This document shows positions 32,441 through 60,205 of a DNA stretch of 64,000 bases, in pieces. The stretch is from Candidatus Latescibacterota bacterium (GTDB lineage: Bacteria > Latescibacterota > UBA2968 > UBA8231). The notes under the pieces are model-generated. The model worked only from the letters and a program-made list of their open reading frames with translations, was not told the DNA's origin and did not search any database. How positions within the stretch are numbered: the stretch's first letter is position 1; every line of letters starts with the position of its first letter. Position numbers and translations under genes: made by a program. The stretch covers positions 960,001 to 1,024,000 of the forward strand of contig OZ241867.1 of assembly GCA_965203175.1 (NCBI GenBank), read 5' to 3'.

Positions 32441-32526
32441 ATAATTAGTACTACAAGCCTTTGTCTTGCATCGGCTTTTGTCATAGACGGTGCTTGCTAT
32501 CGCATTTCCCCCAGCAGGGCTTAGCT

Positions 32527-35232: not shown

Positions 35233-35239
35233 GAGCATA

Positions 35240-38200: not shown

Positions 38201-38335
38201 CAGTGGAACTTCACTTGGGACGGCCGCGACGAACGCGGGCAGTTGGTGCCGCCGGGGATCTACCTGTGCCGGATTAAGATCGCAGCGGACCGGGGAGCCG
38301 AAGAGGAAACCTTTCCGGTCCACGTGGCTTATTGA
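35240..38335 (+). CDS. Large secreted paralog with discoidin-like modules, two Asp-rich motifs and CHU_C/FlgD-like tail
   Basis: Signal peptide from ATG 35240; IDGDLDTFW, VDLG, LDLGATFWVD, WSEWS, SPSPRKFVQ, FTPNGDGVND, WDGRDERG..VPPGIY. Confidence 0.88.
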   Translation: MTRLILAILLPATAVCGQGYRLTADAIRVDRNEHWREWIFQNDVVRTLNERADSTGLFLFSDDAVQPRLVATVANAALAAGQFSYVDAVRTNGETVQGGVTALSNDRIAARLIDGDLDTFWEPAAADFSAAGLRNWELLVDLGRLAFIDSITVSFPAGDAPKAFSLFVSLGEPFPFPDGNSLSFSLVAETKETDLAPPGADGLVRQSYPIAPLLRADFNLDGQPDLQGSFLQYIRLKITESDLERHRFVGEGDAGLDAYQALPPERRGAVVHQRLTAGDFLIEIDEDTYFNDVSAAQRGPIRYFEREVPRVAEVQVWTKGANLALNPRARAGDSYEIGGRGTPNQATDGLYQTEWTAWGYDPTIVRGTMWLDLGATFWVDGLYAVMRRQRSGSAFAGHGFLVSDGTQLKPVQLDTAEDFVQLEEALQWHDIISAERFDNRQPRVLMFGEEFAPRKIRFVQIRNLLSPGSGARLAEMQLHGVGYPVDVSLHSPPIRLTDARGNFVRKTLPRIAWSADAVIREEDPLTDQTIERIEPLDQHPEIRLDIQTRTSDQTDTNFTYYQVVTVAGNEERTEVTKEVYDEIALEWTAWEIWQTLPASRKHASRTDDDGDGLTDEDRIDLIDNDGDGLVDEDGRKLRRAPRSSFDKDGELAFVGWSEWSENYQPTAGRSEAAITSPSPRKFVQIRFKISSEDPFKTARIRSFHLDLAPPLALELAGELALLSSQGMTRPIGDLGTASEDYSPPRGINPLAPQHFSYFARLAAPDPNDPTVRDGVDEILIVAPQAAEPLGVRIGRVEVERQASDLDPAIFSTRVLKTHFDQAFARGPDGRLQDADGQTIAILPTSPDSLYLRFPASLNADLPPDVHALVEVQFASQTFREGILFPAFARSSTDAEGFFQRVDAEAQDATELVASGTARVSLQSAGHRLINDVQVARVFTPNGDGVNDLLQGRFVLLRILAERRLDIAFYDLAGTLRGRAGSDLGQAGQWNFTWDGRDERGQLVPPGIYLCRIKIAADRGAEEETFPVHVAY

Positions 38336-44769: not shown

Positions 44770-47079
44770 GTGTCGCCATTCCGCCTCTTACCCTTAGCAC
44801 TGTGCATGCTCGTGCCATTAAGCAGCCCCATTCGCGCCGAGCACCTAGTTATGACTTCGGCGGATATATGGGAAAACTGGGTGTACCCCCCCGGCGTTTT
44901 GCACCTAGACGAAGCAGGCTCGCTGCGGCCGGTGCATATCGGCAAAGACATTGACCCGCTCTCTGCGGCTATTGTTCGCGGGGCCGGAGCGGCACCATCT
45001 ACTGCTGTCCGCGCCTTTGACGGAGACCCCGCTACTAGCTGGAGTCCTCCGCCGGGCACGGCCCCCAAAGACTGGTGGCTCGAGATCGACTTGGGGCAGG
45101 TGTTCCCCGTCCAACAGATTCGCCTAAGCTTTGCCGACAGCGCGCCGCCCTTGCCCTTTTTTAATCTCTCGCTCTCCAAGGGCGAGCGCTTTATCAACAG
45201 CGCCAACGTCGTCGTCGAAGGCACCCTACTCTACAGCCACAGCCAGCGCTTCGCCTTCAACGAGGTGCGCGATGTCGCGATCAATCTCGACGACGAACTC
45301 GTCCAAGTTCTCCGCATCGAAGCCACTCGCGAAATAACCGGTGCGCCCGCGCTCGCCGAAATCCAAATCAGGGCCTTTGGCGACAATATCGCCTTTGACC
45401 TGATTGCCAAAGGCGGCACTGTCGATGTCGAGGCGGCCGTCGTCGCCGTGGCCGGCATTCCTTCGGTCATGTTCGACGGCGACCTCTCGACCATGTGGCG
45501 CGTCAACCCCCTCGCCAAAGGCTCCAGCGGCGACAGCGAGACCTTCGGCGATTACCGCATCGATCTAGGGGCGACCTACTGGATCGATTCGGTCTGGCTC
45601 TTGGGTGAGCCGTTGGGCATTCCGCCGCGGAAACGGCATCACTACGCCAACTTCCTCTCCTATCAGATGCAGTACTCCGACGGCTCGCTAGCACCTGACG
45701 GCTCGCTGGCTTGGCAGGCGTTAGCCTCTATTCCCCCCGATCCTCGCTACCTCTTCGATGTGCGCAACTTTCGCCACGATGTCCCCCTAATCGCCGCCCG
45801 CTACCTGCGTTTGATCTACCCCACTAGCCAAGGCGGCAACATCATCGGCGGTGGCCTGTCGGGCAGCGATATCGCCAACACCGGTCGCTTGGACGGGCTG
45901 GGCCTAGTCAGCGAGTTCCAAGTGTACGGCGAGGGGTACCCCGCCCGCGTCGTCCTGCGCTCGCCCGTTATCGACCTCGGCTCCAATTGGAATATCACGG
46001 CAATTGAGTGGGAAATTGACGCACCGCTCGGGGCTCTGTTCGCCTTGCGCAGCCGCACCGGCGACCACGTCGTCGAGCAGATGCGCTATTTCGACAAAAA
46101 CGGCAAAGAGGTTACCAAAAGGCGCTACGAAAAGCTGATCGCCTCGTTTCGCGGCCCCATCGAAACCACGCTCCAACCGGGCGATGGCTGGAGCGTGTGG
46201 AGCGAGGAATACCTCCGTACGGGCACCCGCTTCCGCTCGCCTTCGCCCCGGCGCTACGTCCAGCTCGAAGCCGAGCTGCGCGCCGACAGCCCGCAGGCCG
46301 GCATTGCCCTCGACGCGCTTGCCTTGATCTACTCTCGTCCTTTGGCGCGCACCGCGGTTGGCGAAGTCCACCCCGCGCGCGTCGAACCGGGCGAGCAAAC
46401 CGACTTCACGTACTTCCTCCGCCCAGAATTCGCTCGCGACAGCCAGGGCTTTGAGGCCATCGCCCTCGAAGCCTCGGTGCCCCTCGCGTTCCGCGCCCTG
46501 CAAATCGACGACGCGACAATCAATGTCGAAGTGGAAGAGACAAATGCGGGCCTCCGCTTGCATTTGCCCAAGCGAATCTCGGCCGCCGAGCGCGTCGAGC
46601 TAGATTTTGCCGCCACTGTCTTCCAAAACAATACCCGCTTCCGCGCCTTTCTAGAGCGCGAAAGCGGGCTTGACACCCTGCGTCAGCAGGTCGATCCAGG
46701 CGATGCAATTCCCGATTTAGCGGGAGCGGGCGACGCGGTGTCGCTGCCCGTGGACGAGAGCTTACTCTCGCGCCTAGACATAGGCGCGGGGATTTTTACT
46801 CCCAACGGCGACGGCGTCAACGACGCGCTGGCCATCTCTTTCGACGTGCTCAAGGTCCTAGACGCCCGCCCCATTGAAGCCCGCGTCTATGACCTGCGCG
46901 GCCAGCTAGTCCGCACGCTGCGAGATGCCGCCGGCGTGGCCGGCCACTATCAGCTAACTTGGGACGGCCGCCGCGACTCCGGCGCGCTAGCCCCGCCCGG
47001 CCTTTACCTCTTCCGCTTGCAGATCGCTGGCGACTCCGCCACCCGCACCTTGGTCCGCAGTATCGGCCTGAGCTACTAA
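44770..47079 (+). CDS. Third large secreted paralog with discoidin-like modules and CHU_C/FlgD-like tail
   Basis: Signal peptide; FDGDPATSW, EIDLG, IDLGATYWID, SPVIDLG, WSVWS, SPSPRRYVQ, FTPNGDGVND, WDGR..G.LAPPGLY. Confidence 0.88.
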   Translation: MSPFRLLPLALCMLVPLSSPIRAEHLVMTSADIWENWVYPPGVLHLDEAGSLRPVHIGKDIDPLSAAIVRGAGAAPSTAVRAFDGDPATSWSPPPGTAPKDWWLEIDLGQVFPVQQIRLSFADSAPPLPFFNLSLSKGERFINSANVVVEGTLLYSHSQRFAFNEVRDVAINLDDELVQVLRIEATREITGAPALAEIQIRAFGDNIAFDLIAKGGTVDVEAAVVAVAGIPSVMFDGDLSTMWRVNPLAKGSSGDSETFGDYRIDLGATYWIDSVWLLGEPLGIPPRKRHHYANFLSYQMQYSDGSLAPDGSLAWQALASIPPDPRYLFDVRNFRHDVPLIAARYLRLIYPTSQGGNIIGGGLSGSDIANTGRLDGLGLVSEFQVYGEGYPARVVLRSPVIDLGSNWNITAIEWEIDAPLGALFALRSRTGDHVVEQMRYFDKNGKEVTKRRYEKLIASFRGPIETTLQPGDGWSVWSEEYLRTGTRFRSPSPRRYVQLEAELRADSPQAGIALDALALIYSRPLARTAVGEVHPARVEPGEQTDFTYFLRPEFARDSQGFEAIALEASVPLAFRALQIDDATINVEVEETNAGLRLHLPKRISAAERVELDFAATVFQNNTRFRAFLERESGLDTLRQQVDPGDAIPDLAGAGDAVSLPVDESLLSRLDIGAGIFTPNGDGVNDALAISFDVLKVLDARPIEARVYDLRGQLVRTLRDAAGVAGHYQLTWDGRRDSGALAPPGLYLFRLQIAGDSATRTLVRSIGLSY

Positions 47080-47636
47080 ACGCCTAGCTCGCGCATCAGC
47101 GCCCCGTGCGAGCCACCGTGCAGTTCGGGTCGCATATAGACCTTGCGCACGTAGTCGAGCCCGCCGGACAAATGCTCAAACTGCTCCTCTAGGGCACCGA
47201 AGAGCCGCGCTTGCGACACAAAGCCGAGCTGGGCCAACTCGGCTGCCGCCCCATAAGCCCTTCTGCCCTGCTCCAAGTAGTAGCCGCCAAGCCCCTGCCG
47301 CTCGACCCACGTGCGGAAGAGCCCAGTGGTAAAAAGCGCGTAGTCGCCTACGTGTCGGCGGATATCCATCTCGCGGTCGAAGGACCAACGCCGTTCTGGT
47401 TGCCGCTGTCGCCCGAGTTCCACCAACATCTCGGCGATGGTTTCAAGTGGCTGGCCGCGCAGATCGCGGATGCGGTAGAGCTGATCGGTGCGCGCAAAGC
47501 TCACCAACAGATCGACGACGTACTCGACTACTTCGCGGTCGGCAATGCCCAACGAAGTGAACCCAGGAAAAACCAAACGTTGGAAAAAAGACCGTAGTCC
47601 GGACGGCGAGATCGGCTTTGTAATGCGACGCGGCAT
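47076..47636 (-). CDS. Hypothetical helical protein
   Basis: 186-aa ORF directly downstream of the porin gene; motifs YVVDLL, RRHVGDYALF.TGLF, YY..GR.AY. Confidence 0.75.
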   Translation of the reverse strand: MPRRITKPISPSGLRSFFQRLVFPGFTSLGIADREVVEYVVDLLVSFARTDQLYRIRDLRGQPLETIAEMLVELGRQRQPERRWSFDREMDIRRHVGDYALFTTGLFRTWVERQGLGGYYLEQGRRAYGAAAELAQLGFVSQARLFGALEEQFEHLSGGLDYVRKVYMRPELHGGSHGALMRELGV

Positions 47637-47657: not shown

Positions 47658-48920
47658 TCAGAAAGTTGTGTTGGTCATAAGGTAAGTAAAGGTCATATCC
47701 CCGTTCCAGTCCTCAATCGAATCTTTGTAACGAGTAACGCTGGTCATGCTGTCGTCGGCTATCACTCGCGAAAGTCCGGCGACCACGGTAAAACCGGGGC
47801 GGTATTTGTAGGTAAGCGTCAAATCGACTTCCTCGCCCAAATGACTCGACTCCAAGTCGCCCTTTTGCGCTGTGCGGAAAGAGTGCCCGTGGACTCCGAG
47901 GGAGACCTGATCACTCAACGGCAACGCCGCCTTGAGCGCTAGGTCCTGCAGTCCGAGCCCGCCCGTGTGGACCGGGATATTGAGAAACAAATCGGCGTAC
48001 CCATAGTACTTGTGATTGGTCGCAAAGAGCGTGTCAAAGACCTTGGTCTTGTCATCGGCCAGATCGTCGTCGCCAGACAGGTAATCGTACCACAAAGTGA
48101 GGTCTAGCCCGCCTAAAGACCCGCCAATGCGCCCACCGAACATGAAGGCCGATACGTCTTGGGCGCTGCGCTGACCGGTCTGGAAAGAACCCTCGAAACG
48201 GTAGGAGTACGCCGTCTTCTTCCCCGCCAAGCGCGCCCCCATAGTGACCTGATCCGTGTCTTTAGCTCCGTCCTTGTTGTAGAGCGCGTAGAGGTCCAAG
48301 CTGCCAGCCGGCAGTTGCTCCAAGGTCGCGTACGCACCCGTCAAATAGGCGTCGTCTGCAAACTGAGCCGAGGTCGAGTCCGACTCGGTCACCTGAATCG
48401 CCGTCAGGTTCACCTGTCCCCAAGAGGGTGCCAACAGCAGTTGCAGACCGTCGAAAACCCGGCCTTGCTGGGTCCACTCGACCGCGCCGATCAGCCGCTG
48501 ACCACCAAGGGCGACGATCTGACGGCCAATTTTGAGCGAGTGGTCGCCGTCGCCCAGTTTCTTCAGGTGGACATAACCCTGATGCAGGTCAAACTTATCG
48601 GCGCTGTAATCCGTCAGGGTATTCTTTTCCTCACCCCACAAGCGCACATCTTGGAGCTGGATCATCAGATCGACATCGCTATCGAGCGAGGCCACCATCT
48701 GGGTTCGCACCCGCATGGAGGTGAAGGAGTCGTAGTTGTTTGCAAATGGATCGCGGAACTCGTAGCGCGGCCGAATCTGGCCACCCCAGACAATCGCGGC
48801 CCCCATGCGGGAGCCGGACTGCTCTTTTTTAGCGTAGCTGGCGCTGGATGCAACTACGCTCAAAAGAAATGCGGAATAGATTGCAAGACGCACGGCGTTC
48901 CTCCGACGTAAAGATGGCAT
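47658..48920 (-). CDS. Alginate-export-family outer-membrane porin
   Basis: GQIRPRYE, QDVRLWG, LHQGY, GRQ....GQRLIG..EW, SGDD, F.TLF.TNHKYYG.AD, terminal Phe. Confidence 0.88.
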   Translation of the reverse strand: MPSLRRRNAVRLAIYSAFLLSVVASSASYAKKEQSGSRMGAAIVWGGQIRPRYEFRDPFANNYDSFTSMRVRTQMVASLDSDVDLMIQLQDVRLWGEEKNTLTDYSADKFDLHQGYVHLKKLGDGDHSLKIGRQIVALGGQRLIGAVEWTQQGRVFDGLQLLLAPSWGQVNLTAIQVTESDSTSAQFADDAYLTGAYATLEQLPAGSLDLYALYNKDGAKDTDQVTMGARLAGKKTAYSYRFEGSFQTGQRSAQDVSAFMFGGRIGGSLGGLDLTLWYDYLSGDDDLADDKTKVFDTLFATNHKYYGYADLFLNIPVHTGGLGLQDLALKAALPLSDQVSLGVHGHSFRTAQKGDLESSHLGEEVDLTLTYKYRPGFTVVAGLSRVIADDSMTSVTRYKDSIEDWNGDMTFTYLMTNTTF

Positions 48921-48952: not shown

Positions 48953-49798
48953 TCAAGCTACCTGCTTTGGGGCGGTTTCGTCTAGAGTTTCCCGTTCCTC
49001 ATCCGGTACTGCGCCCGGTTCGACCAACGCCGGGCCGTCGAGGAAGCGCAGTAGGTGGCCGCGCAAATCGTAGAAGTGCTCGTGCTCACACACCGTGCGT
49101 CGATCTCGCGGCCGCGGGAATTCCACCGGCAGAACGTCGCCGACCTTGGCCTGCGGGCCGCTGGTCATCATCACTACGCGGTCGGAGAGAAAAAGCGCCT
49201 CATCCACATCGTGGGTCACCATGATTGCGGTAATCCGGTCTCGCCGCCAGACCTCCAACAGCACGTCTTGCAGCTCGGTGCGAGTCAGCGAATCGAGCAT
49301 TCCAAATGGCTCGTCGAGCAGCAGTAGCTTGGGCTTGAGCGCAAAGGCGCGGGCAATCCCCACGCGCTGGCGCATCCCCTGCGATAACTCGGCCGCGCGC
49401 TTGTCGAGCGCGTCAACCAAGCCCACGCGGTTGAGATAGTACTCGGCTATTTCCCGTCGCTCGCGCTTGCTGCCGTGCGGAAAGACTTGTTCGACGCCGA
49501 GCAGCACATTCTCCATGGCCGTCATCCACGGAAACAGACTCGGCGACTGGAAGACCATCCCACGGTCGGGTCCCGGTCCGGTAACCCGGCGTCCGTCTAT
49601 GTAAATGGCCCCGTCGGAGATCTTGTTGAGGCCGGCGATCATCGACAGCACCGTTGACTTGCCGCAGCCCGAGTGGCCAATGATGGAGACGAATTCTCCT
49701 TGTTCAATCCGCAAATCAAAGCCCTTGACCACGGCCATTGGCCCATCGACCGTCGGATAGACCTTGGCGAGATTCGCGAATTCAATATACGCATTCAT
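48953..49798 (-). CDS. nrtD: Nitrate ABC transporter ATP-binding subunit
   Basis: [36 protein letters not shown]. Confidence 0.88.
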
Positions 49799-50658
49799 CG
49801 AGACTGCTCCATAGGTTCTAGATTGGGTAACGCAAGTTCCTTGAACTCAGCGTGCTGAGCCAACCCTTGGTCGGGCCGCACTTCGAGCAAATAACTGTTG
49901 ATGGCGTTGCGGACGACTTTGTAGCCGACATCGCTATTGAGCTCGGTGCGGTCGCGGGGCCGGTCCAGTTCCACCTGAAAATGGGGCCCTAGCGTCGCGG
50001 CCTGCGACGCGGCTCCGGGCTTGAGCGGGATGATGCGGTCGGCGAGGACCAAGCCCTCGTCAACGTCGTTGGTGATCAGCACTGCGGTCTTGCGCTCCTC
50101 GCGCCAGATCTTCTCAATCTCGGCCTGCAAGGTGCCCCGCGTCAGCGCATCGAGGGCGCTGAGCGGCTCATCCATCAGCAAAATCTCTGGGTCCATCGCC
50201 AAGGCGCGCGCAACGGCTACCCGCTGGCGCATGCCCCCTGAAAGCTCAACCGGCCGCTTTTGCAGTGCCGGCGTCAGATGGACCATCTCGACGTAGCGCT
50301 CGACGTGGGCGCGGCGCTTTTTCGCTGGCCAAGCGGAGAAGAGGTGATTGACTACCAAGGCTACGTTGCCATAGACGGTCAGCCACGGCAGCAGCGAATA
50401 GTTCTGGAAGATGACGCCGCGCTCGGGACCGGGGCCGACGATCGGTTTGCCGTCGATGAGGATTTCGCCCTCGTCAGGGTCGCTTAGACCGGCGATCAGC
50501 GAGATCAGCGTGGTTTTGCCGCTACCTGAAAAACCGACGATGGCCACGAATTCTCCCCGTTCGATCTCCAAGCTGACGTTCGCGAGCACCTCGGTGCGCT
50601 CGGCACCTTCGCCATAGGCTTTGCTGACATTGCGCAATTCGAGAAAAGCCATGCCCAT
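49795..50658 (-). CDS. nrtC: Nitrate ABC transporter ATP-binding subunit
   Basis: [37 protein letters not shown]; H-loop reads TNDVDE. Confidence 0.85.
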
Positions 50659-50662
50659 GCCC

Positions 50663-51688
50663 TCAGGTGCCGACCGGCTCGTCGCCGAAGCTGACTAGCT
50701 TGTGCAGGATGACCATCGCCCGGTCGAGCATAAAGCCGATAAAGCCAATGGTCAGCACGGCCACCAAGATCCGCGCCAACGAGTGGCTGCTGCCGTTTTG
50801 AAACTCGTCCCACACGAACTTGCCCAAGCCTGGGTTTTGTGCCAACATCTCCGCGGCGATCAGTACCATCCAGCCGACGCCGAGCGAGATGCGCAGGCCC
50901 GTGAAGATGTAGGGCAGCGAGGCCGGCAGGACGATCTTAAAAATCCGGTCTTTGACCCCGAGGTTGAGCACCCGCGCCACATTGACGTAATCCTGACTTA
51001 GCGACGACACGCCCAAGGCGGTGTTGATCAGCGCTGGCCACAGCGAGCACAGCGACACAGTGACCGCCGAATTGATAAAGGACTTTGCAAAAAGTCCGTC
51101 GTTGGTCGTGTAGAGGGCACTGACCACCATCGTCACTAGCGGCAGCCAAGCCAGCGGCGACACGGGCTTGAATATCTGGATCAATGGATTAAACGCGTTC
51201 ATCACCGTGCGACTCATGCCGCAAAACAGGCCGAGTGGTACGGCCACCAGTGCAGCCAGCACAAAGCCGGCGAAAACCGTGTACAGGCTAGTGCCGATCT
51301 GGTCCAGATACGTCGGCTTGCCGGTGTATCGGCGAATCTTGACTTGGGCTTGTGGGTTTGCGGCCAATTTCTCGGCGTTGCGCTTTTCCTGCCGCTCGTA
51401 GAACGCCTGCGCTTTTTCCCGTTCTTCCACGTGCTCTTCCCACAGGCCTACCGCCTGCTGGTAGGCCTGCGTCGGCCCGGGGATATTGCCCAAGCTGGTC
51501 TCGATTTGGGCGGCGATCAACGACCACAGCATCAGGAAGGTGACGAACGCGCTCACGGGCACGCCGATCAGGGTCCAGATGTCGCGGACCTGCTGGCCGG
51601 GATTTTCCCCGGCGGCTAGTTTGACCACCGGCGTCAGCCAAGTCAGCCCGACGAAAATGAGGATTTTGTTCAGCTTATCGACTAGCAA
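50663..51688 (-). CDS. nrtB: Nitrate ABC transporter permease
   Basis: [47 protein letters not shown]. Confidence 0.92.
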
Positions 51689-51699
51689 TCTACCGCCTC

Positions 51700-53064
51700 C
51701 TATTTCATCGACGTTTTGGTGTAGTCGTCCTTGATACCCACGCGAAATTTGTGCAGATAGGCGTTGGGCTGGCGACCGTCGTACTCGACTCCATCTATAA
51801 AGTCGCTGGTCGGCTCCTTGTAGCCGTCGGTTTGGGGAATCTCGTCGGCTGTCAAGTAACCATCCTCCACGAGCAGAGCTGCGGCCTCGTGCCAGATGTC
51901 GGGCCGGTAGATCTCCTTAATCGTCGCGTGATACCAAGAGTCGGGTTTGGGGGCGTCGATCTGGCCCCAGCGCCGCATCTGGGTCAAGAACCAAATGCCG
52001 TCGCTGTAGAAAGGGTACGTGGCGGCGTAGCGGTAGAACACATTGAAGTCCGGCATTGCGCGCTTGTCGCCCTTTTCAAACTCAAAAGTGCCGGTCATGC
52101 TGTTGGCGATGACCTCAAAGTCAGCGCCGACATACTCCGAGCGGGAGAGGATCCGCGCCGCTTCAACGCGGTTTTTTGGCTCGCCATCTTCGCCTTCCTC
52201 GTCGAGCCACTTGCCAGCGCGAATTAGCGCCTTGACCACCGCTTTGTGCGTGTTGGGGTGCTTGTCGGCCCAAGCCTTGCTGACGCCAAAGACCTTTTCC
52301 GGATTGTTCTTCCACACGTCGTAGTTGGTCGTCACCGGCACGCCAATGCCCTTGAACACGGCCTGTTGGTTCCACGGTTCGCCCACGCAGTACCCGTAGA
52401 TGGTGCCCGCTTCCAAGGTCGCCGGCATCTGCGGCGGCGGCGTCACCGACAGCAGCACATCGGCATCGGTCATGCCGGTTATGTCCTCGCTAGTGTAGTA
52501 ACCCGGACTAATGCCGGCGGCGGCCAGCCAGTAGCGCAGCTCGTAATTGTGCGTCGAAACCGGAAAGACTATGCCCATCTTGAACCCGCGGCCCTCGTCT
52601 CGGTAGGCTTCCACAATCGGCTTGAGCGCATCGGCCTTGATCGGGTGGGTCGGCTTGCCGTCTGCGCGCTTGGGCACGTGGGGCTTCATTTGCTCCCAGA
52701 CCTCGTTGGCGACCGTGATGCCATTGCCGTTGAGATCCATGCTGCAGGCGGTAATAATGTGGGCTTGAGTGCCAAAGCCAATGGTCGCGCCAATCGGCTG
52801 TCCGGCCAGCATGTGCGCCCCGTCTAGTTCGCCGTCGATGACGCGGTCGAGCAGCACCTTCCAATTGGCCTGCGCCTCCAAGGTGACGAAAAGCCCCTCA
52901 TCCTCGAAGAAGAACTGCTCCTTGGCAATGACCAAAGGCGCGCAGTCGGTCAGCTTGATGAAACCGAACTTGAGTTCGTCTTTTTCTAATGCTAGTTCCC
53001 CAGCACCGATTCCCTCGGCGCAGGACAAGACGGCCAAGGCAACGGCTGCGATAACTGCTTTCAT
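51700..53064 (-). CDS. nrtA: CmpA/NrtA-family nitrate-binding protein
   Basis: [55 protein letters not shown]; ATG 53064 after GAGGAG. Confidence 0.93.
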
Positions 53065-53071
53065 AATCTCC

Positions 53072-55258
53072 TCATTTAGCGGTGGTTTTTTCGACTCGTT
53101 CAATGCGCACGGCGCACTGCTTGTAGTTGGGCTCGCGCGACTTCGGGCAGAACGCCGGGAGGGTGAGTTGGTTGACGCACTGCTCGGCAAAGTGAAAGGG
53201 CACAAAGAGTTGGTCTGGATGGATCGTCTCGGTAATCCGCAGCAGCAAGCCCTCGACGCGCCCGCGTCTGGAGACCAAAGAGACGCGATTGCGCGGGCCA
53301 AGGCGGAAGCGCCGCGCGGTCTGCGGATGGATCTCGACCCAAGGCTCGGGCGAGAGCTTTTCCAGCATCGGCACGTCGCGGGTCTTGGTCCGCGTGTGCC
53401 AGTGCTCTACCGTGCGCCCGGTGTTGAGCAGAATGGGGTATTCGTCGTCCGGCGGCTCGGGTAGCGGCAGCGGCGCAGTGTACAACAACCGCGCCCGGCT
53501 GTCCTCGGTCGGGAAGCGACCGTCGGTGTACAGGCTGTCAACGCCCTCGGGATGCGCGTCGTTGCAGGGCCACTGAATCCCGCCCAAGGCGTCCATCTTC
53601 TCATAGCTCATGCCGCTGTAATCGCAGAGCTGTCCCTTGGATATTCGGCGCATTTCCGCGAACGCATCGGCCGAGCCGCGCCATCCGGGAAAGAGTTCGT
53701 CGCTGACCCCAAGCACTCGGGCCAAATCCATGAAAATATCGAAATCGGCCTTGGCTTCCCCAGGCGGCGACACGGCTTGCCGCACCCGGCTAGCGCGGCG
53801 CTCGCTGTTGGTATAACTGCCGCTCTTCTCGCCCCACACAGCCGTCGGCAGCACCAAGTCGGCCAGCTCGGTAGTAGGCGTCGGGTGGAAACCGTCTTGC
53901 ACTACGAGCAGATCGAGGCCAGCGAGCGCCTGGCGCAACCGCTCCTGATCGGGAAAGCTAGCCAGCGGATTGGTGGCAATCACCCACAGCGCCTTGATGC
54001 GGCCCGCTGTGATGGCGTCGATGATGTCGGGATAGGCCAGGCCGCGCTTTTGGGGCAGTCGTTCCGCGTCCAACCCCCACAACACCGCCAATTCCTCGCG
54101 GTCTGCTCGGCTCTCGAACTTGCGGTAGCCCGGCAGCGATGAGGCAAAACCAAACTCGCGGGTGCCCATGGCATTGCACTGGCCGGTGATGGACAACGGC
54201 GCAGCACCCGTGCGGCCGATATTGCCCGTAATCAGCGCGAGGGTGTTGATCAAGCTGACGGTATCCGTCCCTTGCGTCGAGTGATTGACGCCCATGGTCC
54301 ACGCAAAGAGGACGTTTTCGGCCTTGGCAATCGCCTCGAAGGCCGCCCAGATCGCTTCGGGACTTAAACCCGTGTGCTCCGCCACGACCTCGATGGGATA
54401 ATGACTAGCGTGTTCGGCCAGCGCCTCAAAACCAGTGGTATGAGCATCGACGAAGTCTCGATCGACATAGCCGTGCTCAATCACCAAGTTGATCAGGCCG
54501 TTGAGCAGATACACATCGCCGCGCGGCCGGATCGGCAGATAGAGGTCGGCAAACATCGCCGTCTTGGTCTTGCGCGGATCGCAGACGATCAGTTTGTAAT
54601 CTTCGTTCTGGTTGAGATGATGCCAGAGGATGGGGTGATTGTCGGCGATATTCGCACCGATCAAAAAAACCGTATCGGCCTCTCGCAAACCGCGATACGA
54701 TCCCGGCGGGCCGTCCGAGCCAAAGCTCTGTTTGTAACCAGCCACCGCCGAGCTCATGCACAGCGTGGTATTGCCGTCGTAACTGCTCGTGCCAAAGCCC
54801 AGTTGCACTAGCTTGCCTAGCGCGTAAAACTCCTCGGTGACGAGCTGGCCGGTTGACAACACGGCAAAACTCTCTTTGCCGTACTGCTCCTGAATCCGGC
54901 ACACCCGTCCCACCATCTCCTCGTAAGCCCGTTCCCAAGAGATGGGGTCGCCGTGCCACAGCGGGGCATGGGCGCGATTGGGGCTTTTCAGGGGCAGGTG
55001 CTCGCTCAAGCCTTTTGGACAGAGGCTGCCCTCGTTGACAGGGTGCTCCTCATCGCCGCGCACCGAGACGATTTCGTCTCCCTTGACGCCCACTACCATG
55101 CCGCAACCCACCGAGCAGTAGCCGCAGGTGGTCTTGACCCAGCGCTCGGGGATTTTCTTTTGCGACAGATATCCGTACTGAGGGTCGCGACCAAAGGCGT
55201 ACTCGTCCGCCTTAATGTCAAAGCCAAGAGATTCTTTGATTTTCTGTCCGAGTTTCAT
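53072..55258 (-). CDS. Molybdopterin nitrate reductase catalytic subunit (NasA/NarB-like, no Tat signal)
   Basis: CGYCSVGC...CPKG 4Fe-4S motif, TTLCMSSA Mo-Cys, MGVNHS.QG, GQCNAMG.RE, LNTGR..EHWHT.TKT; start 55258 or 55273. Confidence 0.9.
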
Positions 55259-55269
55259 CGCTAGCCCCG

Positions 55270-56841
55270 TCACGCGACCGAGCGGTGGGCTTCGACGATG
55301 AAATTGCCTGCGATATTGGTGCCGACGACCGTGGTGAAAAACAGGTAGCGCTGCAAGAATACATAGGCCACCAAGCCAGCGACGCTCAAAGTCGCCGCCG
55401 CGATCGAGACCGCACCAACGCCCAAGGTCAAGAGTCCTATCAGCGCCAACAGGGCCGCACCATTTTTGTACATCCGCAAGCGGGCGAAGTGATCGCGGTA
55501 GAGTTCGGCGCTGGCCTGGAGTTCAAAGGTCTCGCTCTCCGCCAAGTAACAGACGAAGTCCGAGTGCAATTTCGCGTAGGCTAGCAGCGCCAGCGCCGAG
55601 ACCAACTCCGAGACCTGCACGCTCAATCCCGCTTCCCCACCCAATACCAGCGCCAGCCCCAGTACTGCCGGACCGACGATCCATGCCACGGCGAAAAAAT
55701 CGACTGTGGTCTTGCGGAAATTCCACGCCGGACGGGCCGGCACCCGATAGAGCCGGGCGCTGGCGTAAATGCCGGCGATGCCCGCCGTGACCGCTACTGC
55801 CCCCAACGACAGCCGGGCACCGATTCCACCCAAGGCTTCCGCACTCACCCACCCCAAACCTTCGGTCGCCAACAGGAACGCCGCATAGGCAAAGGCGACT
55901 TTGGCAAAAAGCGCTAGCGCCAGCACTTCGCGCGACAACCAGGAGGTGCGCCAGTTGCGAATCGCGCGGAAGGCAAAGGCTGGTCGCCCCAGATGCAAAG
56001 TCGATGCGGCGAGCGAAAGACCGATCAGCCCCATCAGCACGGCGGCCAGCGTGCCGAGCGCGGTACCGGCTAGCTGCACCGCACCGCTGAGCGAACGCAG
56101 CAAGTCCACCGCGTATATCGCCGCAAAGCCCCCCAAGCCGATCTGGGTCAGCACCGTCATAAAGATCAGCGGCGAATGCGGTTCCTCCGGCTCGACAAAG
56201 TCGCCGGTGACTGGGTGCAGACTGCTGGGATCGACGCCTTTGGGCAAGGTGATCTTCGTCGAAGGCATGGAGATTTCTGGCGCGGGCATTCCCGGGGCGG
56301 CACCAGCGTCCTCGTAGGTTGCGAACACCTCCTCAAGCGGCACAGTCTCAATCTCAATCGCTCCGGCCGGGCACGCCTGTGCGCAAGCGGGCTCGCGGCT
56401 TTCTTCGAGCCGATTGACGCACATGTCGCACTTGGAGACCACGCCGCGCTCGGGCTGGAAGCTCGGCACGCTATAAGGGCAGTTCCAAGTGCAGTACTGG
56501 CAGCCAATGCAGACATCAGCTTGGTGAATGACGATGCCGCGCTCGTCAATTTTGTAGGCATCAACCGGGCAGCCCTTGGCGCAGGGGGCATCTAAGCAGT
56601 GGTTGCAACCGCTAGAAAGGAAGAAGCGCAATGTGTCGGGATACTCGCCGCCCTCGACCTCGCCGACGCGCCGCCACTGGGTATCTACGGGCAGGCCATT
56701 CTGTTCACTACAGGCGACTTCGCAGGCGTGGCAGCCGACGCAGAGATCCATGTGGAAGTGGAAGCGCGTTTGGGTCGAGCGGTTGTCCGTGCGAAAACCG
56801 GGTAGGTCGGGCTTTTCTATTATATCCATTATCCATGGCAT
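55270..56841 (-). CDS. Fused DmsB-like 4x[4Fe-4S] protein and DmsC-like membrane anchor
   Basis: CVGCHACEVAC, CNHCLDAPC..GCP, CIGCQYCTWNCP, KCDMC..PACAQACP, then about eight TM helices with STLHLGRP and SWLSRE; start 56841 or 56829. Confidence 0.9.
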   Translation of the reverse strand: MPWIMDIIEKPDLPGFRTDNRSTQTRFHFHMDLCVGCHACEVACSEQNGLPVDTQWRRVGEVEGGEYPDTLRFFLSSGCNHCLDAPCAKGCPVDAYKIDERGIVIHQADVCIGCQYCTWNCPYSVPSFQPERGVVSKCDMCVNRLEESREPACAQACPAGAIEIETVPLEEVFATYEDAGAAPGMPAPEISMPSTKITLPKGVDPSSLHPVTGDFVEPEEPHSPLIFMTVLTQIGLGGFAAIYAVDLLRSLSGAVQLAGTALGTLAAVLMGLIGLSLAASTLHLGRPAFAFRAIRNWRTSWLSREVLALALFAKVAFAYAAFLLATEGLGWVSAEALGGIGARLSLGAVAVTAGIAGIYASARLYRVPARPAWNFRKTTVDFFAVAWIVGPAVLGLALVLGGEAGLSVQVSELVSALALLAYAKLHSDFVCYLAESETFELQASAELYRDHFARLRMYKNGAALLALIGLLTLGVGAVSIAAATLSVAGLVAYVFLQRYLFFTTVVGTNIAGNFIVEAHRSVA

Positions 56842-56876: not shown

Positions 56877-56894
56877 AAGCAAGAGTAGTGCCAA
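56877..56894 (-). promoter_or_regulatory. Sigma-54 promoter of the nitrate reductase/transport operon
   Basis: Minus strand TTGGCACTACTCTTGCTT = TGGCAC-N5-TTGC. Confidence 0.85.
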
Positions 56895-56925
56895 GAATGG
56901 AAAGAAAGACAGTGTGATTGTGTCT

Positions 56926-56938
56926 CAAGTCGTTGATA
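56926..56938 (-). promoter_or_regulatory. IHF-like site
   Basis: TATCAACGACTTG matches WATCAANNNNTTR. Confidence 0.6.
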
Positions 56939-57001
56939 AAAAATATACTTATATCATAAAAGATCTGTCTCTTGCAAAATGATTCGAACTCGTGAAATTA
57001 T

Positions 57002-57061
57002 CAAAAAAACTACAATATTTGTGTTTTTTGCCGTCAATAAAAAACATATTTGTGTTTTTTG
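57002..57061. promoter_or_regulatory. Tandem candidate enhancer (UAS) sites
   Basis: ATATTTGTGTTTTTTG at 57015-57030 and 57046-57061, 31-bp period, each within an A-tract/T-tract dyad. Confidence 0.6.
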
Positions 57062-57217
57062 GATCGCCGCACCATTACTTCTTTATCTGATCCGACCTCG
57101 ATTTTGTCGACACGGGGTTGGAGAACGCGCATTTGCGACATTTATGGACATTTTTGTCGATTTTCTGCAAAAATGTGCGCTATATCGCAGTGCCTTGCGA
57201 TTGAGTTAAATAATGCC

Positions 57218-57230
57218 TAAATAGTTGATA
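57218..57230 (-). promoter_or_regulatory. IHF-like site
   Basis: TATCAACTATTTA matches WATCAANNNNTTR. Confidence 0.6.
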
Positions 57231-57273
57231 AAATTATAAATACAGCAATTTATTGAACTCCTGTATCCGCAAG

Positions 57274-57291
57274 CTGGTCTGTGTTTTGCTT
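57274..57291 (+). promoter_or_regulatory. Sigma-54 promoter of nirBD
   Basis: CTGGTCTGTGTTTTGCTT, GG-N10-GC. Confidence 0.7.
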
Positions 57292-57326
57292 ATTGGACTT
57301 AAGCTAGTGTTTACAGGAGAAAACCG

Positions 57327-59849
57327 ATGATAGCACCAAGCGACAACAATCCGGATCGACCGCACTTAGTCGTCGTTGGCAATGGCATGGTGGGGCACCG
57401 CTTTTGCGAGGAAATGGTCGCGCGCGACGGCCAGCAGCAGTTTCGCATCCACGTCTTCTGCGAAGAGCCGCGCTTGGCCTACGACCGCGTCGGCCTCAGT
57501 AAATACTTCTCGGGCACCCCGGTCGCCGACCTAATGCTAGGTACTATTGAATGGTATCAAGAGCACGGGATTGAAACCCATATTGGCAGCCGGGCCACGG
57601 CCATACAGCGCGAGCAGGGCATCGTCACCTCCCAGCGCGGAGGGGCCATACAGTACGACCGCCTCGTACTGGCCACTGGGTCCGCCCCTTTCGTCCCACC
57701 CATCGACGGCGTCGCCAAAGAAGGCGTATTCGTCTATCGCACGATCGAAGATATAGAAGCCATTGCCGTCTACGGTCAAAAGGCACGGCGCGCGCTCGTG
57801 CTAGGCGGTGGGCTATTGGGCCTCGAAGCGGCCAAGGCCCTCGTCGATATGGGGCTGGAAACTACTGTCGTCGAATTCAACACCCGGCTGATGCCCCGCC
57901 AGATCGACGACGCGGCTTCATCGCTGCTGGTTGAGGAAATAGAGGCCCTCGGGGTCGAAGTCCTGCTCGGCAAAGGTGCGCAGCTCTTTCTCGGCGACGA
58001 CAAAGTCACAGCCGTCTCCTTTGGCGGGGAGGAGGAACGGGCCTTCGACATGGTCGTCATCTCCACCGGTATCCGCCCGCGCGACGAGCTGGCGCGCGAG
58101 TGTGGGTTAGCAACCGGCGAGCGCGGCGGCGTGGTCGTGGACGATACGCTCACCACCAGCGATCCACACATCCACGCCATTGGCGAAGTGGCCCTGCATC
58201 GCGGCATTACCTATGGCTTAGTGGCCCCGGGCTACGACATGGCCGCCATTCTCGCCGAGCGCCTCTGCGGGCCGGAAAACCCCGTCTTTACCTCGGGCGA
58301 CTTCTCGACCAAGCTCAAGCTCATGGGCGTCGATGTCGCCAATTTCGGCGACGCCTTCGGCCAAACGCCCGGCAGCCGGGTTATCTACTTCCACAGCGAT
58401 GTCGCCCGCGTGTACAAGCGGCTGACCGTTAGCGGGGAGCACCTGCTTGGCGGCATGCTGGTCGGCGACGCCTCGGAATACAACCACTTCTTGCAGATGG
58501 TCAAAAACAAGACCCCCTTGCCCGGCGATCCCCACGAACTACTGCTCGGCACATCCAGCGACAAGGCGGTCGGCTTCAATCCACAGAACCTGCCCGACGA
58601 CGCGCAGATCTGCTCGTGCAACAACGTCGCCAAGGGCACCCTCGTCCGCGCTGTAGCCGAAGGCTATACCCAACTCGGCGCACTCAAGGACGCCACGCGC
58701 GCCGGCACGGGCTGCGGCGGCTGCATACCCTTGGTAACCGACATCCTAAACGCCGAACTCACAGCCCAAGGCCTAGAAGTCAATACCCACCTCTGCGAAC
58801 ACTTCGCCTATTCGCGGCAGGAGCTGTTCCAGATTGTCAAAATCAACCGCATCAAGCGCTACGACGACTTGCTAGCCCGCTATGGCCAAGGACACGGGTG
58901 CGAGATCTGCAAACCCGCAATCGCCTCTATCTTAGCTAGCACTTGGAACGACCTCATCCTCGAACAGGAAGAACTGCAGGACACCAACGACCGCTTCCTC
59001 GCCAACATTCAGCGCGGCGGCACGTATTCGGTCATCCCCCGGGTGCCCGGCGGCGAGATTACGCCCGCCAAGCTGATCGCCCTCGGCCAAGTCGCGCAAA
59101 AGTACGACCTCTACTGCAAAATCACCGGCGGCCAGCGCGTCGATTTGCTCGGCGCACGAGTCGATCAGCTGCCCTTCATTTGGGAGGAGCTAATCGCCGC
59201 GGGCTTTGAGAGCGGGCACGCCTATGGCAAGGCCCTGCGCACGGTCAAAAGCTGCGTCGGCACCACTTGGTGCCGCTACGCCGTGCAGGACTCTACCGGC
59301 TTCGCCATCCGCATCGAAGAGCGCTACCGCGGCATCCGCGCTCCCCACAAAGTCAAGGCCGCCTGCTCGGGCTGCGTACGCGAGTGCGCCGAGGCCCAAG
59401 GCAAGGACTTTGGCTTAGTCGCCACTGAAAAAGGCTGGAATCTCTACGTTTGTGGCAACGGCGGTGCCAAACCTCAGCACGGGGTCCTGTTCGCCGCGGA
59501 TCTCGACGAGGAGACCTGTATCAAATACATCGATCGCTTCCTCATGTATTACATCCACACCGCTGACAAGCTGACCCGCACCGCCACTTGGTTCAATCAG
59601 CTAGAAGGCGGCATCGAATATCTGCGCCGCGTAATCATCGACGATCACCTCGGGATCTGCGCGCAGCTAGAGGAGGATATGGCCCACTTAGTGGCAACCT
59701 ATCAATGCGAGTGGAAGGCGGTCGTCGAAGACCCGGAGCGCCGCAAGCGCTTCCGCCACTTCGTCAACAGCGACGACGTGGACGACAATTTGCAGTGGAC
59801 ACACGAACGGGAGCAAAAGCGGCCCGTCAACTGGGAGATGGTAGTATGA
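57327..59849 (+). CDS. nirB: NAD(P)H-dependent nitrite reductase large subunit
   Basis: VVGNGMVG, GGGLLGLEAA, CSCN...CGGC, CEICKP, ANIQR.GTYS, KSCVG..WC, SGC.RECAEA. Confidence 0.97.
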   Translation: MIAPSDNNPDRPHLVVVGNGMVGHRFCEEMVARDGQQQFRIHVFCEEPRLAYDRVGLSKYFSGTPVADLMLGTIEWYQEHGIETHIGSRATAIQREQGIVTSQRGGAIQYDRLVLATGSAPFVPPIDGVAKEGVFVYRTIEDIEAIAVYGQKARRALVLGGGLLGLEAAKALVDMGLETTVVEFNTRLMPRQIDDAASSLLVEEIEALGVEVLLGKGAQLFLGDDKVTAVSFGGEEERAFDMVVISTGIRPRDELARECGLATGERGGVVVDDTLTTSDPHIHAIGEVALHRGITYGLVAPGYDMAAILAERLCGPENPVFTSGDFSTKLKLMGVDVANFGDAFGQTPGSRVIYFHSDVARVYKRLTVSGEHLLGGMLVGDASEYNHFLQMVKNKTPLPGDPHELLLGTSSDKAVGFNPQNLPDDAQICSCNNVAKGTLVRAVAEGYTQLGALKDATRAGTGCGGCIPLVTDILNAELTAQGLEVNTHLCEHFAYSRQELFQIVKINRIKRYDDLLARYGQGHGCEICKPAIASILASTWNDLILEQEELQDTNDRFLANIQRGGTYSVIPRVPGGEITPAKLIALGQVAQKYDLYCKITGGQRVDLLGARVDQLPFIWEELIAAGFESGHAYGKALRTVKSCVGTTWCRYAVQDSTGFAIRIEERYRGIRAPHKVKAACSGCVRECAEAQGKDFGLVATEKGWNLYVCGNGGAKPQHGVLFAADLDEETCIKYIDRFLMYYIHTADKLTRTATWFNQLEGGIEYLRRVIIDDHLGICAQLEEDMAHLVATYQCEWKAVVEDPERRKRFRHFVNSDDVDDNLQWTHEREQKRPVNWEMVV

Positions 59850-60205
59850 GCGAATCCATAGCAATAGAGCAGTGGGTGCGAGTCGCCCGAGTCGAGGACT
59901 TCCCCAGCAATGCTGGAGCCTGCGTCAAGCTGGGAGACGAGCAGATCGCAGTATTCAATTTTGCCTCGCACCGCGATTGGTACGCCTGCCAAAACATGTG
60001 CCCCCACAAGCGCGACATGGTCCTCTCTCGCGGCTTGATCGGCGATCGAGAAGGCACGCCCAAAGTCGCCTGCCCCCAACACAAGAAGACGTTCTCGCTG
60101 ATCGACGGAAGCAACCTCGGCGGCGAAGAGTACAGCATCAATATCTATCCAGTAAAGGTAGAACAGGGCTTCGTCTACATCGGCGCGGGCTCAACCAGCA
60201 ACTAA
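59846..60205 (+). CDS. nirD: Nitrite reductase small subunit (Rieske-like)
   Basis: QIAVF, NMCPHK...LSRGLIGD, VACPQHKK.F; ATGA overlap with nirB. Confidence 0.95.
   Translation: MSESIAIEQWVRVARVEDFPSNAGACVKLGDEQIAVFNFASHRDWYACQNMCPHKRDMVLSRGLIGDREGTPKVACPQHKKTFSLIDGSNLGGEEYSINIYPVKVEQGFVYIGAGSTSN

Follow-up and report, generated by a model that had tools for sequence, protein, structure and literature searches.

A predicted cytoplasm-facing nitrate reductase with a fused iron-sulfur/DmsC-type subunit in an assimilatory gene cluster of Candidatus Latescibacterota

Assimilatory nitrate reductases take their electrons, in the textbook account, from NAD(P)H via a flavoprotein or from ferredoxin or flavodoxin. 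In DmsABC of Escherichia coli, electrons run from a quinol site in DmsC through the four clusters of DmsB to the iron-sulfur cluster FS0 and the molybdenum bis(pyranopterin guanine dinucleotide) cofactor (Mo-bisPGD), a wiring that is also that of PsrABC and the same as the one proposed below. The closest known layout is that of SoeABC from Allochromatium vinosum and Aquifex aeolicus, of the complex iron-sulfur molybdoenzyme (CISM) type, in which the molybdenum and iron-sulfur (FeS) subunits are proposed to lie on the cytoplasmic (N) side of an inverted DmsC-type anchor, as predicted here. SoeABC is not known to carry twin-arginine translocation (Tat) signals. It is the only N-side-facing complex named in the 2021 review of NrfD-like subunits (Calisto and Pereira, PMC8076601). 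Here we describe two adjacent genes of Candidatus Latescibacterota bacterium that lie on the minus strand of a 64,000-nt stretch of DNA (GCA_965203175.1, OZ241867.1 positions 960,001-1,024,000, forward strand; hereafter the window). They encode a four-cluster FeS protein fused to a DmsC-type membrane anchor (the fusion) and a Nas-like Mo-bisPGD catalytic subunit (the Mo subunit). Together, the two genes would encode a two-polypeptide, three-module CISM-type enzyme turned toward the cytoplasm and most likely fed by quinol, a reading to which we assign a probability of about 0.68.

The fused iron-sulfur/anchor protein and its orientation

The fusion is one polypeptide in which Pfam places Fer4_11 at residues 78-169 and DmsC at residues 228-438. 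Its N-terminal part has DmsB as the best NCBIfam match (153.7 bits, under the cut-off), and a profile of 15 fusion homologs reaches, in hhalign, a probability of 99.9 with E. coli DmsB and of 97.5 with E. coli DmsC. The cysteines of its four 4Fe-4S groups (C39/42/45/49, C84/87/92/96, C116/119/122/126, and C143/146/158/162) are all invariant, 16 of 16, in an alignment of 65 homologs from several phyla. Moreover, the AlphaFold2 model built on this alignment, with a predicted local distance difference test (pLDDT) of 83.8 and a predicted template modeling score of 0.86, shows a ferredoxin fold with four clusters and, behind it, eight long transmembrane helices. In Foldseek, the structural matches are ArrB, FdnH, and PsrB for the N-terminal part, whereas those of the C-terminal part are ActC and PsrC. 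The pair of proteins thus presents the features of a CISM enzyme: a Mo-bisPGD subunit with an FS0 cysteine motif, a 16-Cys four-cluster protein, and a heme-free NrfD/DmsC-type anchor of eight helices with a predicted quinone site.

Regarding that site, hhalign pairs S285, H288, S305, E310, and R503 of the fusion with S62, H65, S82, E87, and R271 of DmsC. Positions of the S62/H65/S82/E87 type are predicted quinone-site residues of DmsC and SoeC, the arginine matching R503 is a conserved mid-membrane or gate residue of NrfD-like subunits, and replacement of DmsC His65 stops quinol oxidation (PMC8076601). All five fusion residues are invariant in the 65 sequences, R503 being located mid-membrane. 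Because the quinone-site residues and the arginine are retained and invariant, the anchor looks like a working quinol site and not a mere tether.

For the orientation, lysines and arginines (K+R) were counted in the loops on the FeS side and on the opposite side of the membrane, with the helix limits taken from the AlphaFold2 model. In the 65 sequences, the FeS-side loops hold a mean of 18.8 K+R (minimum 14) and the opposite loops a mean of 1.0 (maximum 4), the FeS side being the richer in every one of them; for the inter-helix loops alone, the values are 13.6 and 1.0. By the same measure, E. coli DmsC, whose partners DmsAB face the periplasm (PMC8076601), shows the reverse bias, with 4 K+R on the DmsB side and 8 on the opposite side. 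Also, twin-arginine motifs and hydrophobic leaders are absent from both the fusion and the Mo subunit, and both features are present in the NapA references examined alongside. Since neither protein carries an export signal, the FeS domain, the docked Mo subunit, and the quinol site would, by the positive-inside rule, lie on the cytoplasmic side, and the fusion anchor would be inverted relative to DmsC, as has been proposed for SoeC. A periplasmic orientation is ruled out by the lack of a Tat or general secretory signal and by the strong charge bias. In this case, the features of the DmsABC type, a Tat signal on the catalytic subunit and a periplasmic facing, are both missing; those of the SoeABC type, cytoplasm-facing subunits on an inverted DmsC-type anchor, are seen in the charge bias of 65 out of 65 sequences and in the retained His, Glu, and two Ser of SoeC.

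Conserved pairing with a Nas-like molybdenum subunit

Among 8,000 proteins scored, 4,465 are relatives of the fusion at E <= 0.001, and at least 592 stretches in one-genome-per-species contigs encode such a relative; the locus counts given here refer to the best 80. These come from Latescibacterota, Kiritimatiellota (Pontiella), and many Acidobacteriota, including the cultured Terriglobus roseus DSM 18391, and further from Acidimicrobiia (Actinomycetota), Dormibacterota, Omnitrophota, Vulcanimicrobiota, Chlamydiota, and Campylobacterota. An ortholog of the Mo subunit (49-95% identity) is found near the fusion in 74 of the 80 loci, and where at least 2.5 kb of downstream room is available, its gene follows the fusion gene directly in 67 out of 70. 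The exceptions are L023, which has none, L068, where the Mo gene lies 2.3 kb further on, and L046, with two partial matches. Because the pairing recurs across phyla, it is not a matter of chance.

When only the 40 loci with full 8-kb flanks are considered, 39 have an adjacent Mo gene, 37 a nitrite reductase gene of the NirB or NirA type, 24 a nitrate transporter (Nrt or major facilitator superfamily, MFS), and 16 a porin of the Alginate_exp type. A comparison of the neighborhoods reveals that the partners vary while the fusion/Mo pair stays. For example, the row in T. roseus (L063) opens with a HemD-GAF-ANTAR regulator and NirA, continues with a CysJ-like flavoprotein and the fusion/Mo pair, and closes with two MFS transporters that have a porin between them. 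In a metagenome-assembled genome of Terriglobia, NirB comes behind the fusion/Mo pair and is followed by an MFS transporter and a porin.

The Mo subunit has the FS0 cysteines C50/53/57/85, which are invariant in 43 Mo-subunit sequences, the Mo-ligand motif C172-M173, and a conserved R372 (P0002 numbering). No 2Fe-2S tail is present, and Pfam finds no domain beyond residue 721 of 733. A clade-specific N-terminal extension of ~40 residues (about 10-45), in which G17, D19, Y25, G34, and W45 are invariant, is missing from the proteobacterial Nas references. Cys-Met marks Nap and Nas enzymes, and Sec/Cys-His (Sec, selenocysteine) marks formate dehydrogenases. In the alignment, two active-site stretches of the Mo subunit match rlcmasavggy and ltgqpnacggvrd of NapA, where FdhF has lchaptvag and lrgqnnvqga, so that its TGQxNAxGxR motif is NapA-like and not of the RGQNNVQG kind seen in FdhF. 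Of the 74 fusion-linked Mo genes, 71 encode TLCM, and the other three are partial matches that do not cover the motif; the annotated Nas references (Ralstonia, Leisingera, Erwinia, and Streptomyces) have RLCM and the annotated FdhF has C-H. Among solved structures, the best matches are Desulfovibrio NapA and the FdhF that belongs to the hydrogen-dependent CO2 reductase, and public annotation names the orthologs "nitrate reductase" or "assimilatory nitrate reductase catalytic subunit". Because the active-site stretches decide where the profile scores do not, the Mo subunit is read as nitrate type. It therefore agrees with the Nas/NarB description of a cytoplasmic Mo-bisPGD enzyme having a Cys ligand and nitrate-type motifs.

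The phylogeny of the Mo subunits was examined with two trees. The first, a quick IQ-TREE run under LG+G4, has 78 rows, of which 11 are references, 66 are loci, and one is the window; L005, L013, L019, L035, L046, L048, L061, and L078, whose Mo matches are partial, were left out. The references comprise three proteobacterial Nas, one Streptomyces NasN-like fusion, five formate dehydrogenases, and two NapA, and do not include NarB, Bacillus NasC, or haloarchaeal NasA. In this tree, the 67 fusion-linked Mo subunits form one clade apart from all references, with a Shimodaira-Hasegawa-like approximate likelihood ratio (SH-aLRT) support of 100. The clade is also whole, with a support of 100, in the second tree (38 rows, site-mixture model, quick search). 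Moreover, a joint clade of the Mo subunits and the Nas references is not rejected by the approximately unbiased test (p-AU 0.444, lnL difference 0.67). In line with this, the positions of NasC/NasA and of NapA among the cytoplasmic formate dehydrogenases are described as not robust (Wells et al., PMC10100899). We thus treat the Mo subunits as a distinct Nas-like clade and not as members of the classical NasA clade.

Regarding the contact between the two proteins, a complex between the Mo subunit and fusion residues 1-225 was predicted from alignments of 43 and 65 sequences, respectively, together with three controls. The pair scores 0.92 and the best of the controls 0.00; the score mark that is passed here is reached by 58 out of 80 solved complexes and by 2 out of 110 mismatched pairs, rates that are only approximate for custom alignments such as those used. 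Contact agreement among three runs is at least 86%, with a partner pLDDT of at least 82. In the predicted interface, the FS0 loop (82-90) and the N-terminal extension (17-40) of the Mo subunit are placed against the first cysteine group of the fusion (38-54), which in the model is the alpha/beta arrangement of CISM enzymes. This suggests that the pair is built like solved complexes, which is not to say that it binds.

What an earlier note on this DNA had read from the sequence alone stands after this comparison. Its single upstream polypeptide with four 4Fe-4S motifs and a DmsC-like anchor is recovered by Pfam, by the 65-sequence alignment, and by the eight helices of the model, and its NasA/NarB/NapA-type motifs, with neither a twin-arginine leader nor a C-terminal 2Fe-2S extension, hold in the NapA/FdhF alignment, the N-terminal comparison, and the Pfam search. 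The cytoplasmic facing that it had proposed is borne out in silico, and its quinone-exchanging anchor is in agreement with invariant residues homologous to those of DmsC and SoeC. The predicted topology and complex also favor its proposal, with the caveat on likeness to solved pairs given below. Also, the NrtABCD-type genes and porin that it had placed downstream and the divergent nirBD are found by Pfam and NCBIfam as listed in Table 1, and its assimilatory setting extends across phyla with differing nitrite reductases and transporters. In the phylogeny, which it had suggested as a check, the subunits form a clade of their own that may join the Nas references and are not placed within classical Nas.

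Gene cluster and genome background

On the minus strand, the window shows a single tight operon from 47.0 to 56.9 kb with the fusion gene first (Table 1). The start of this gene is probably ATG 56841 (or 56829), TTG 56856 opening the longest open reading frame (ORF). For the Mo gene, whose ORF spans 53072..55273, ATG 55258 is the most likely start, giving the same length as in the 97%-identical relative P0123 and leaving 11 bases after the fusion stop. The nirBD genes are divergent from this operon, with a 485-bp A+T-rich spacer between.

Table 1. Features of the nitrate cluster in the window (positions of the window)
Feature	Position	Strand	Remarks
Fused FeS/anchor gene	55270..56841	-	One open frame, ~523 aa; Pfam Fer4_11 + DmsC
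Four-cluster FeS domain, DmsB-like	56326..56772	-	P0001 residues ~29-177
DmsC-type membrane anchor, 8 transmembrane helices	55327..56181	-	P0001 residues ~226-510
Mo-bisPGD catalytic subunit gene, Nas-like	53072..55258	-	728 aa; Molybdop_Fe4S4, Molybdopterin, Molydop_binding
NrtA-like periplasmic nitrate-binding protein	51700..53060	-	NMT1_2; likely start ATG 53060 preceded by GGAG
NrtB-like ABC permease	50663..51688	-	BPD_transp_1; TIGR01183 ntrB 166 bits, below the cut-off of 209
NrtC/NrtD-type ABC ATPase	49795..50658	-	TIGR01184 ntrCD 263.9 bits, under the cut-off of 291.8
NrtC/NrtD-type ABC ATPase	48953..49798	-	TIGR01184 ntrCD 325.3 bits, over the cut-off of 291.8
Outer-membrane porin, Alginate_exp family	47658..48920	-	Pfam; same family recurs in Acidobacteriota nitrate clusters
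186-aa ORF at operon end	47076..47636	-	No match in Pfam or NCBIfam
Sigma-54-type -24/-12 element (tentative promoter)	56879..56893	-	TGGCAC-N5-TTGC, exact; 38 nt upstream of the fusion ATG
nirB, NAD(P)H-type assimilatory nitrite reductase	57327..59849	+	NF011565 1130.7 bits, over the cut-off
nirD	59846..60205	+	Rieske_2 E = 3.8e-28; ATGA overlap with nirB

In the genome that carries the window, no NarG is found (TIGR01580 best 27 bits, range 21-27), which leaves no sign of a NarGHI enzyme, and no other Nas or Nap homolog apart from a selenocysteine formate dehydrogenase; because of this, the Mo subunit is the only candidate nitrate reductase of the genome. As for the quinone, MqnC of the futalosine pathway scores over its cut-off, indicating menaquinone, and neither MenA nor a proteobacterial UbiA over cut-off is found. 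The second homolog of the Mo subunit in the genome (G000:C1:4125181-4127193, minus strand, locus L082) carries, at the position of the active site, a single in-frame TGA with His as the next residue, which makes it a selenocysteine formate dehydrogenase alpha subunit.

Regarding regulation, the element listed upstream of the fusion gene is an exact match to the sigma-54-type consensus TGGCAC-N5-TTGC. The motif has two exact matches in the window and, with at most one mismatch, 7 against 5.1 expected, so it is not significant alone; also, an element of this type stands upstream of the fusion gene in only 3 of the 80 loci. It is a tentative nitrogen-regulated promoter. A looser GG-N10-GC element (TGGTCTGTGTTTTGC) is located ~45 nt before nirB, and the A+T-rich nas/nir spacer (56894-57326) holds repeated ATTTGTGTTTTTTG-like runs and half-sites of the TGTCGACA/TGCGAC type, which could be regulator sites. 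As for expression, contigs from two metatranscriptome runs of two studies (X1 and X2) match parts of the operon with 90-99% similarity, and the fusion/Mo junction is bridged by two of them (X1 record 5, 54865-55734; X2 record 13, 55095-55579). They are at most a weak hint of expression because their source is relatives, DNA may be present in an RNA library, and spanning two genes does not make a contig a transcript.

Several observations concern the neighboring genes. The 186-aa ORF at the end of the operon is 100% kept over the covered part in the near-identical locus L001. The Alginate_exp porins of the nitrate loci (in the window, L063 13203-14792, and L004 15959-17395) may be a nitrate/nitrite-specific family. 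Flanking the T. roseus cluster is a gene for a HemD (uroporphyrinogen-III synthase)-GAF-ANTAR fusion (L063 2209-3879, minus strand), a protein that may be an antiterminator-type regulator tying siroheme supply to nitrate assimilation, and an ANTAR-type match is found in 35 of the 80 loci. In two Campylobacterota loci (L023 4004-7517 and L068 1360-4998), the gene immediately upstream of the fusion encodes a nitrite reductase of the NirA (ferredoxin) type, and one may ask whether this reductase, too, is served by the fusion. Elsewhere in the window, three large secreted-looking proteins of 923, 1050, and 769 aa are encoded on the plus strand (32461-38335 and 44770-47079), whose only recognized domains are F5/8 type C and, in the 769-aa protein, also a CHU_C/T9SS sorting domain; no family match at all is seen for the 923-aa protein. 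An Rfam scan of the window returned one tRNA and nothing else.

Proposed electron path, alternative readings, and known systems

Based on these features, a sequence of electron transfer from the membrane to nitrate can be proposed. Nitrate would enter via the porin and NrtABCD, and menaquinol would be oxidized where S285, H288, S305, and E310 form the putative site of the DmsC/SoeC-type anchor, at its cytoplasmic face. The electrons would then pass through the four 4Fe-4S clusters of the fusion to FS0 and the Mo-bisPGD of the docked Nas-like subunit, which would reduce nitrate to nitrite, and NirBD would take nitrite to ammonium for assimilation. Menaquinone lies at about -74 mV. The nitrate/nitrite couple lies at about +433 mV (PMC10100899), and the driving force of the step is ample. 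With the quinol site predicted on the N side and hemes absent, no obvious redox loop is formed; the quinol:nitrate step is probably not electrogenic unless NrfD-type proton paths are used. Regarding the quinol-fed reductase for assimilation or redox balancing that the earlier note had put forward, the active site, gene context, orientation, and quinone residues are in agreement in silico, and from this computational evidence we infer that quinol is the donor, which way the electrons flow, and what the physiological role is.

Several results weigh against this reading. The best NCBIfam score of the Mo subunit is with Fdh-alpha (540 bits), and haloarchaeal NasA (512.7 bits, cut-off 1000) and NasC (511.1 bits, cut-off 1100) come behind it, all under their cut-offs. 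In the first tree, the base is a polytomy and the Mo clade does not fall inside the classical Nas clade, and in the second, the formate dehydrogenase references are its weakly supported sister group (SH-aLRT 80). Also, many fusion homologs are named "formate dehydrogenase iron-sulfur subunit" by JGI. All this could be expected if the Mo subunit were no nitrate reductase and the complex were a cytoplasm-facing oxidoreductase of formate (or another substrate) and quinone working in the reverse direction. However, the active site has Cys-Met instead of Cys/Sec-His and TGQxNAxGxR instead of RGQNNVQG, the neighbors are nitrite reductases and nitrate transporters, and the genome has a separate Sec-containing formate dehydrogenase; formate dehydrogenase identity is thus set aside on motifs and context despite the profile score, and we regard such an enzyme as highly improbable. 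Further points concern the complex as a whole. Its predicted interface may owe its passing score to likeness to the solved alpha/beta pairs PsrAB, FdnGH, and ArrAB. In L023, no Mo gene is found within 4.4 kb downstream of the fusion, an opposite-strand FtsK being next, and the fusion is patchy in its own phylum, present in 13 out of 168 genomes and in 8 out of 30 other genomes of the genus.

The donor and the physiological role can also be read in other ways. The fusion might be mainly a tether and FeS relay beside the nitrate importer, the electrons coming from a soluble donor such as ferredoxin, NirB, or a CysJ-like flavoprotein, as classical Nas enzymes use soluble donors. In fact, 25 of the 80 loci contain a gene for a diflavin reductase of the CysJ-like kind, the Terriglobus gene just before the fusion encodes such an NADPH flavoprotein, a possible alternative donor, and NirB adjoins in many loci. 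Nonetheless, a tether would not need the quinone-site residues and mid-membrane Arg that are invariant in 65 sequences from several phyla, the CysJ-like gene is absent from 55 of the 80 loci, including the window, and in Terriglobus it comes right after NirA, as expected of a NirA partner; a soluble donor is for these reasons unlikely. On the other hand, the complex and its quinol donor could be as proposed and the main role be dissimilatory, assimilation coming second: the enzyme would be an electron sink in the cytoplasm that serves redox balancing or a low-grade respiration of nitrate. Draining of the quinone pool is within reach of a quinol:nitrate oxidoreductase, the genome itself is without NarG or NapA, and reduction of nitrate to nitrite is reported for Granulicella mallensis and strain KBS 96, which have putative nasA genes only and no dissimilatory reductase (Eichorst et al. 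2018, PMC5900883). This reading is unlikely given the near-constant linkage to assimilatory nitrite reductases (37 of the 40 full loci with NirBD or NirA) and uptake systems and given that an N-side quinol site without a heme relay offers no obvious redox loop; the sigma-54-like element of the window is also on this side, as weak evidence.

Returning to the quinol-fed assimilatory enzyme, its consequences would reach beyond this genome. Quinol would be a third electron source for nitrate assimilation, nitrogen assimilation would be tied directly to the respiratory quinone pool, and the assumed cost of nitrate use, in energy and reductant, would change for Acidobacteriota, Acidimicrobiia, Latescibacterota, Kiritimatiellota, and Campylobacterota, which are abundant in soil and sea. 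A wider reading, which we consider doubtful, is that the fusion could be a general cytoplasmic "quinol socket" defining a third class of assimilatory nitrate reductase, possibly coupling quinol oxidation to proton movement through inverted NrfD-type half-channels (with R503 as gate) and serving other acceptors, for example, the NirA of Campylobacterota. If true, this would explain nitrate-to-nitrite reduction by Acidobacteria without Nar and Nap. Genome surveys record "nasA" only and miss the partner, often mislabeled as a DMSO-reductase anchor or formate-dehydrogenase FeS subunit; in this way, "nasA" is listed without a partner for T. roseus and other Acidobacteria (Eichorst et al. 2018, PMC5900883). 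Moreover, cultured carriers exist, including T. roseus DSM 18391, and the proposal is directly testable in them. No published description of the fusion/Mo pairing was found in a literature search that included PMC8076601, PMC5900883, PMC4013037, PMC10100899, and PMC10623323, subscription journals and supplements being outside the search, and the words "fused", "fusion", and "nitrate reductase" do not occur in the 2021 NrfD-like review. The enzyme is a real, conserved, widespread, and apparently undescribed cytoplasm-facing assimilatory nitrate reductase of the CISM type with a fused FeS/DmsC subunit.

A comparison with the known systems supports that it departs, as the earlier note had held, from all standard nitrate reductase layouts, matching none of Nas with NADH diaphorase, NarB with ferredoxin, NarGHI, and NapAB. 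The classical Nas enzymes (Klebsiella and Ralstonia NasA with an NADH diaphorase, Bacillus subtilis NasBC, cyanobacterial NarB with ferredoxin, and the actinobacterial NasN-type flavoprotein fusions) are, as here, cytoplasmic Mo-bisPGD proteins with FS0 and Cys-Met encoded in nas/nir/nrt clusters. However, the Mo clade is separate from them, with 36-39% identity to the annotated proteobacterial and actinobacterial Nas compared with 52-95% among the fusion-linked subunits themselves, and has no 2Fe-2S tail, an N-terminal extension of its own at the predicted FeS interface, and a membrane FeS/quinol partner; also, the operon of the window has no NasB-like gene besides NirB. With NarGHI, it would share being a membrane-bound, cytoplasm-facing quinol:nitrate oxidoreductase with a Tat-less catalytic subunit. 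NarG has an Asp ligand, and NarI is a di-heme b anchor with a periplasmic quinol site and a redox loop, whereas here the ligand is Cys and the anchor is heme-free and of the DmsC type. As for NapAB, no Tat motif and no nap genes are present in the operon, and the NapA models give 389 and 367 bits, under their cut-offs of 904 and 931. FqoABC was also considered and rejected as the same system because it has separate FdnGH-like subunits and FqoC has Asp65 where the fusion family has His (PMC8076601).

Finally, the two systems that share the wiring or the layout differ from this enzyme in distinct ways. In DmsABC, DmsAB are Tat-exported and face the periplasm, whereas here the Tat signal is missing and the charge bias is reversed; DmsB and DmsC are separate and here fused, and the catalytic subunit belongs to the Nas/Nap/Fdh branch and not to DmsA. 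SoeABC, which was compared by description and not by sequence, has quinone-site residues His65, Glu87, Ser82, and Ser85 in SoeC, as in the fusion (PMC8076601). Nonetheless, SoeB and SoeC are separate proteins and here a single polypeptide, the catalytic subunit is not of the SoeA type, belonging instead to the Nas/Nap/Fdh branch with Cys-Met, and the direction would be opposite, SoeA oxidizing sulfite and reducing quinone whereas the Nas-like Mo subunit should be reduced by quinol. If this holds, the fusion would represent a second, independent inverted DmsC-type anchor after that of SoeABC.

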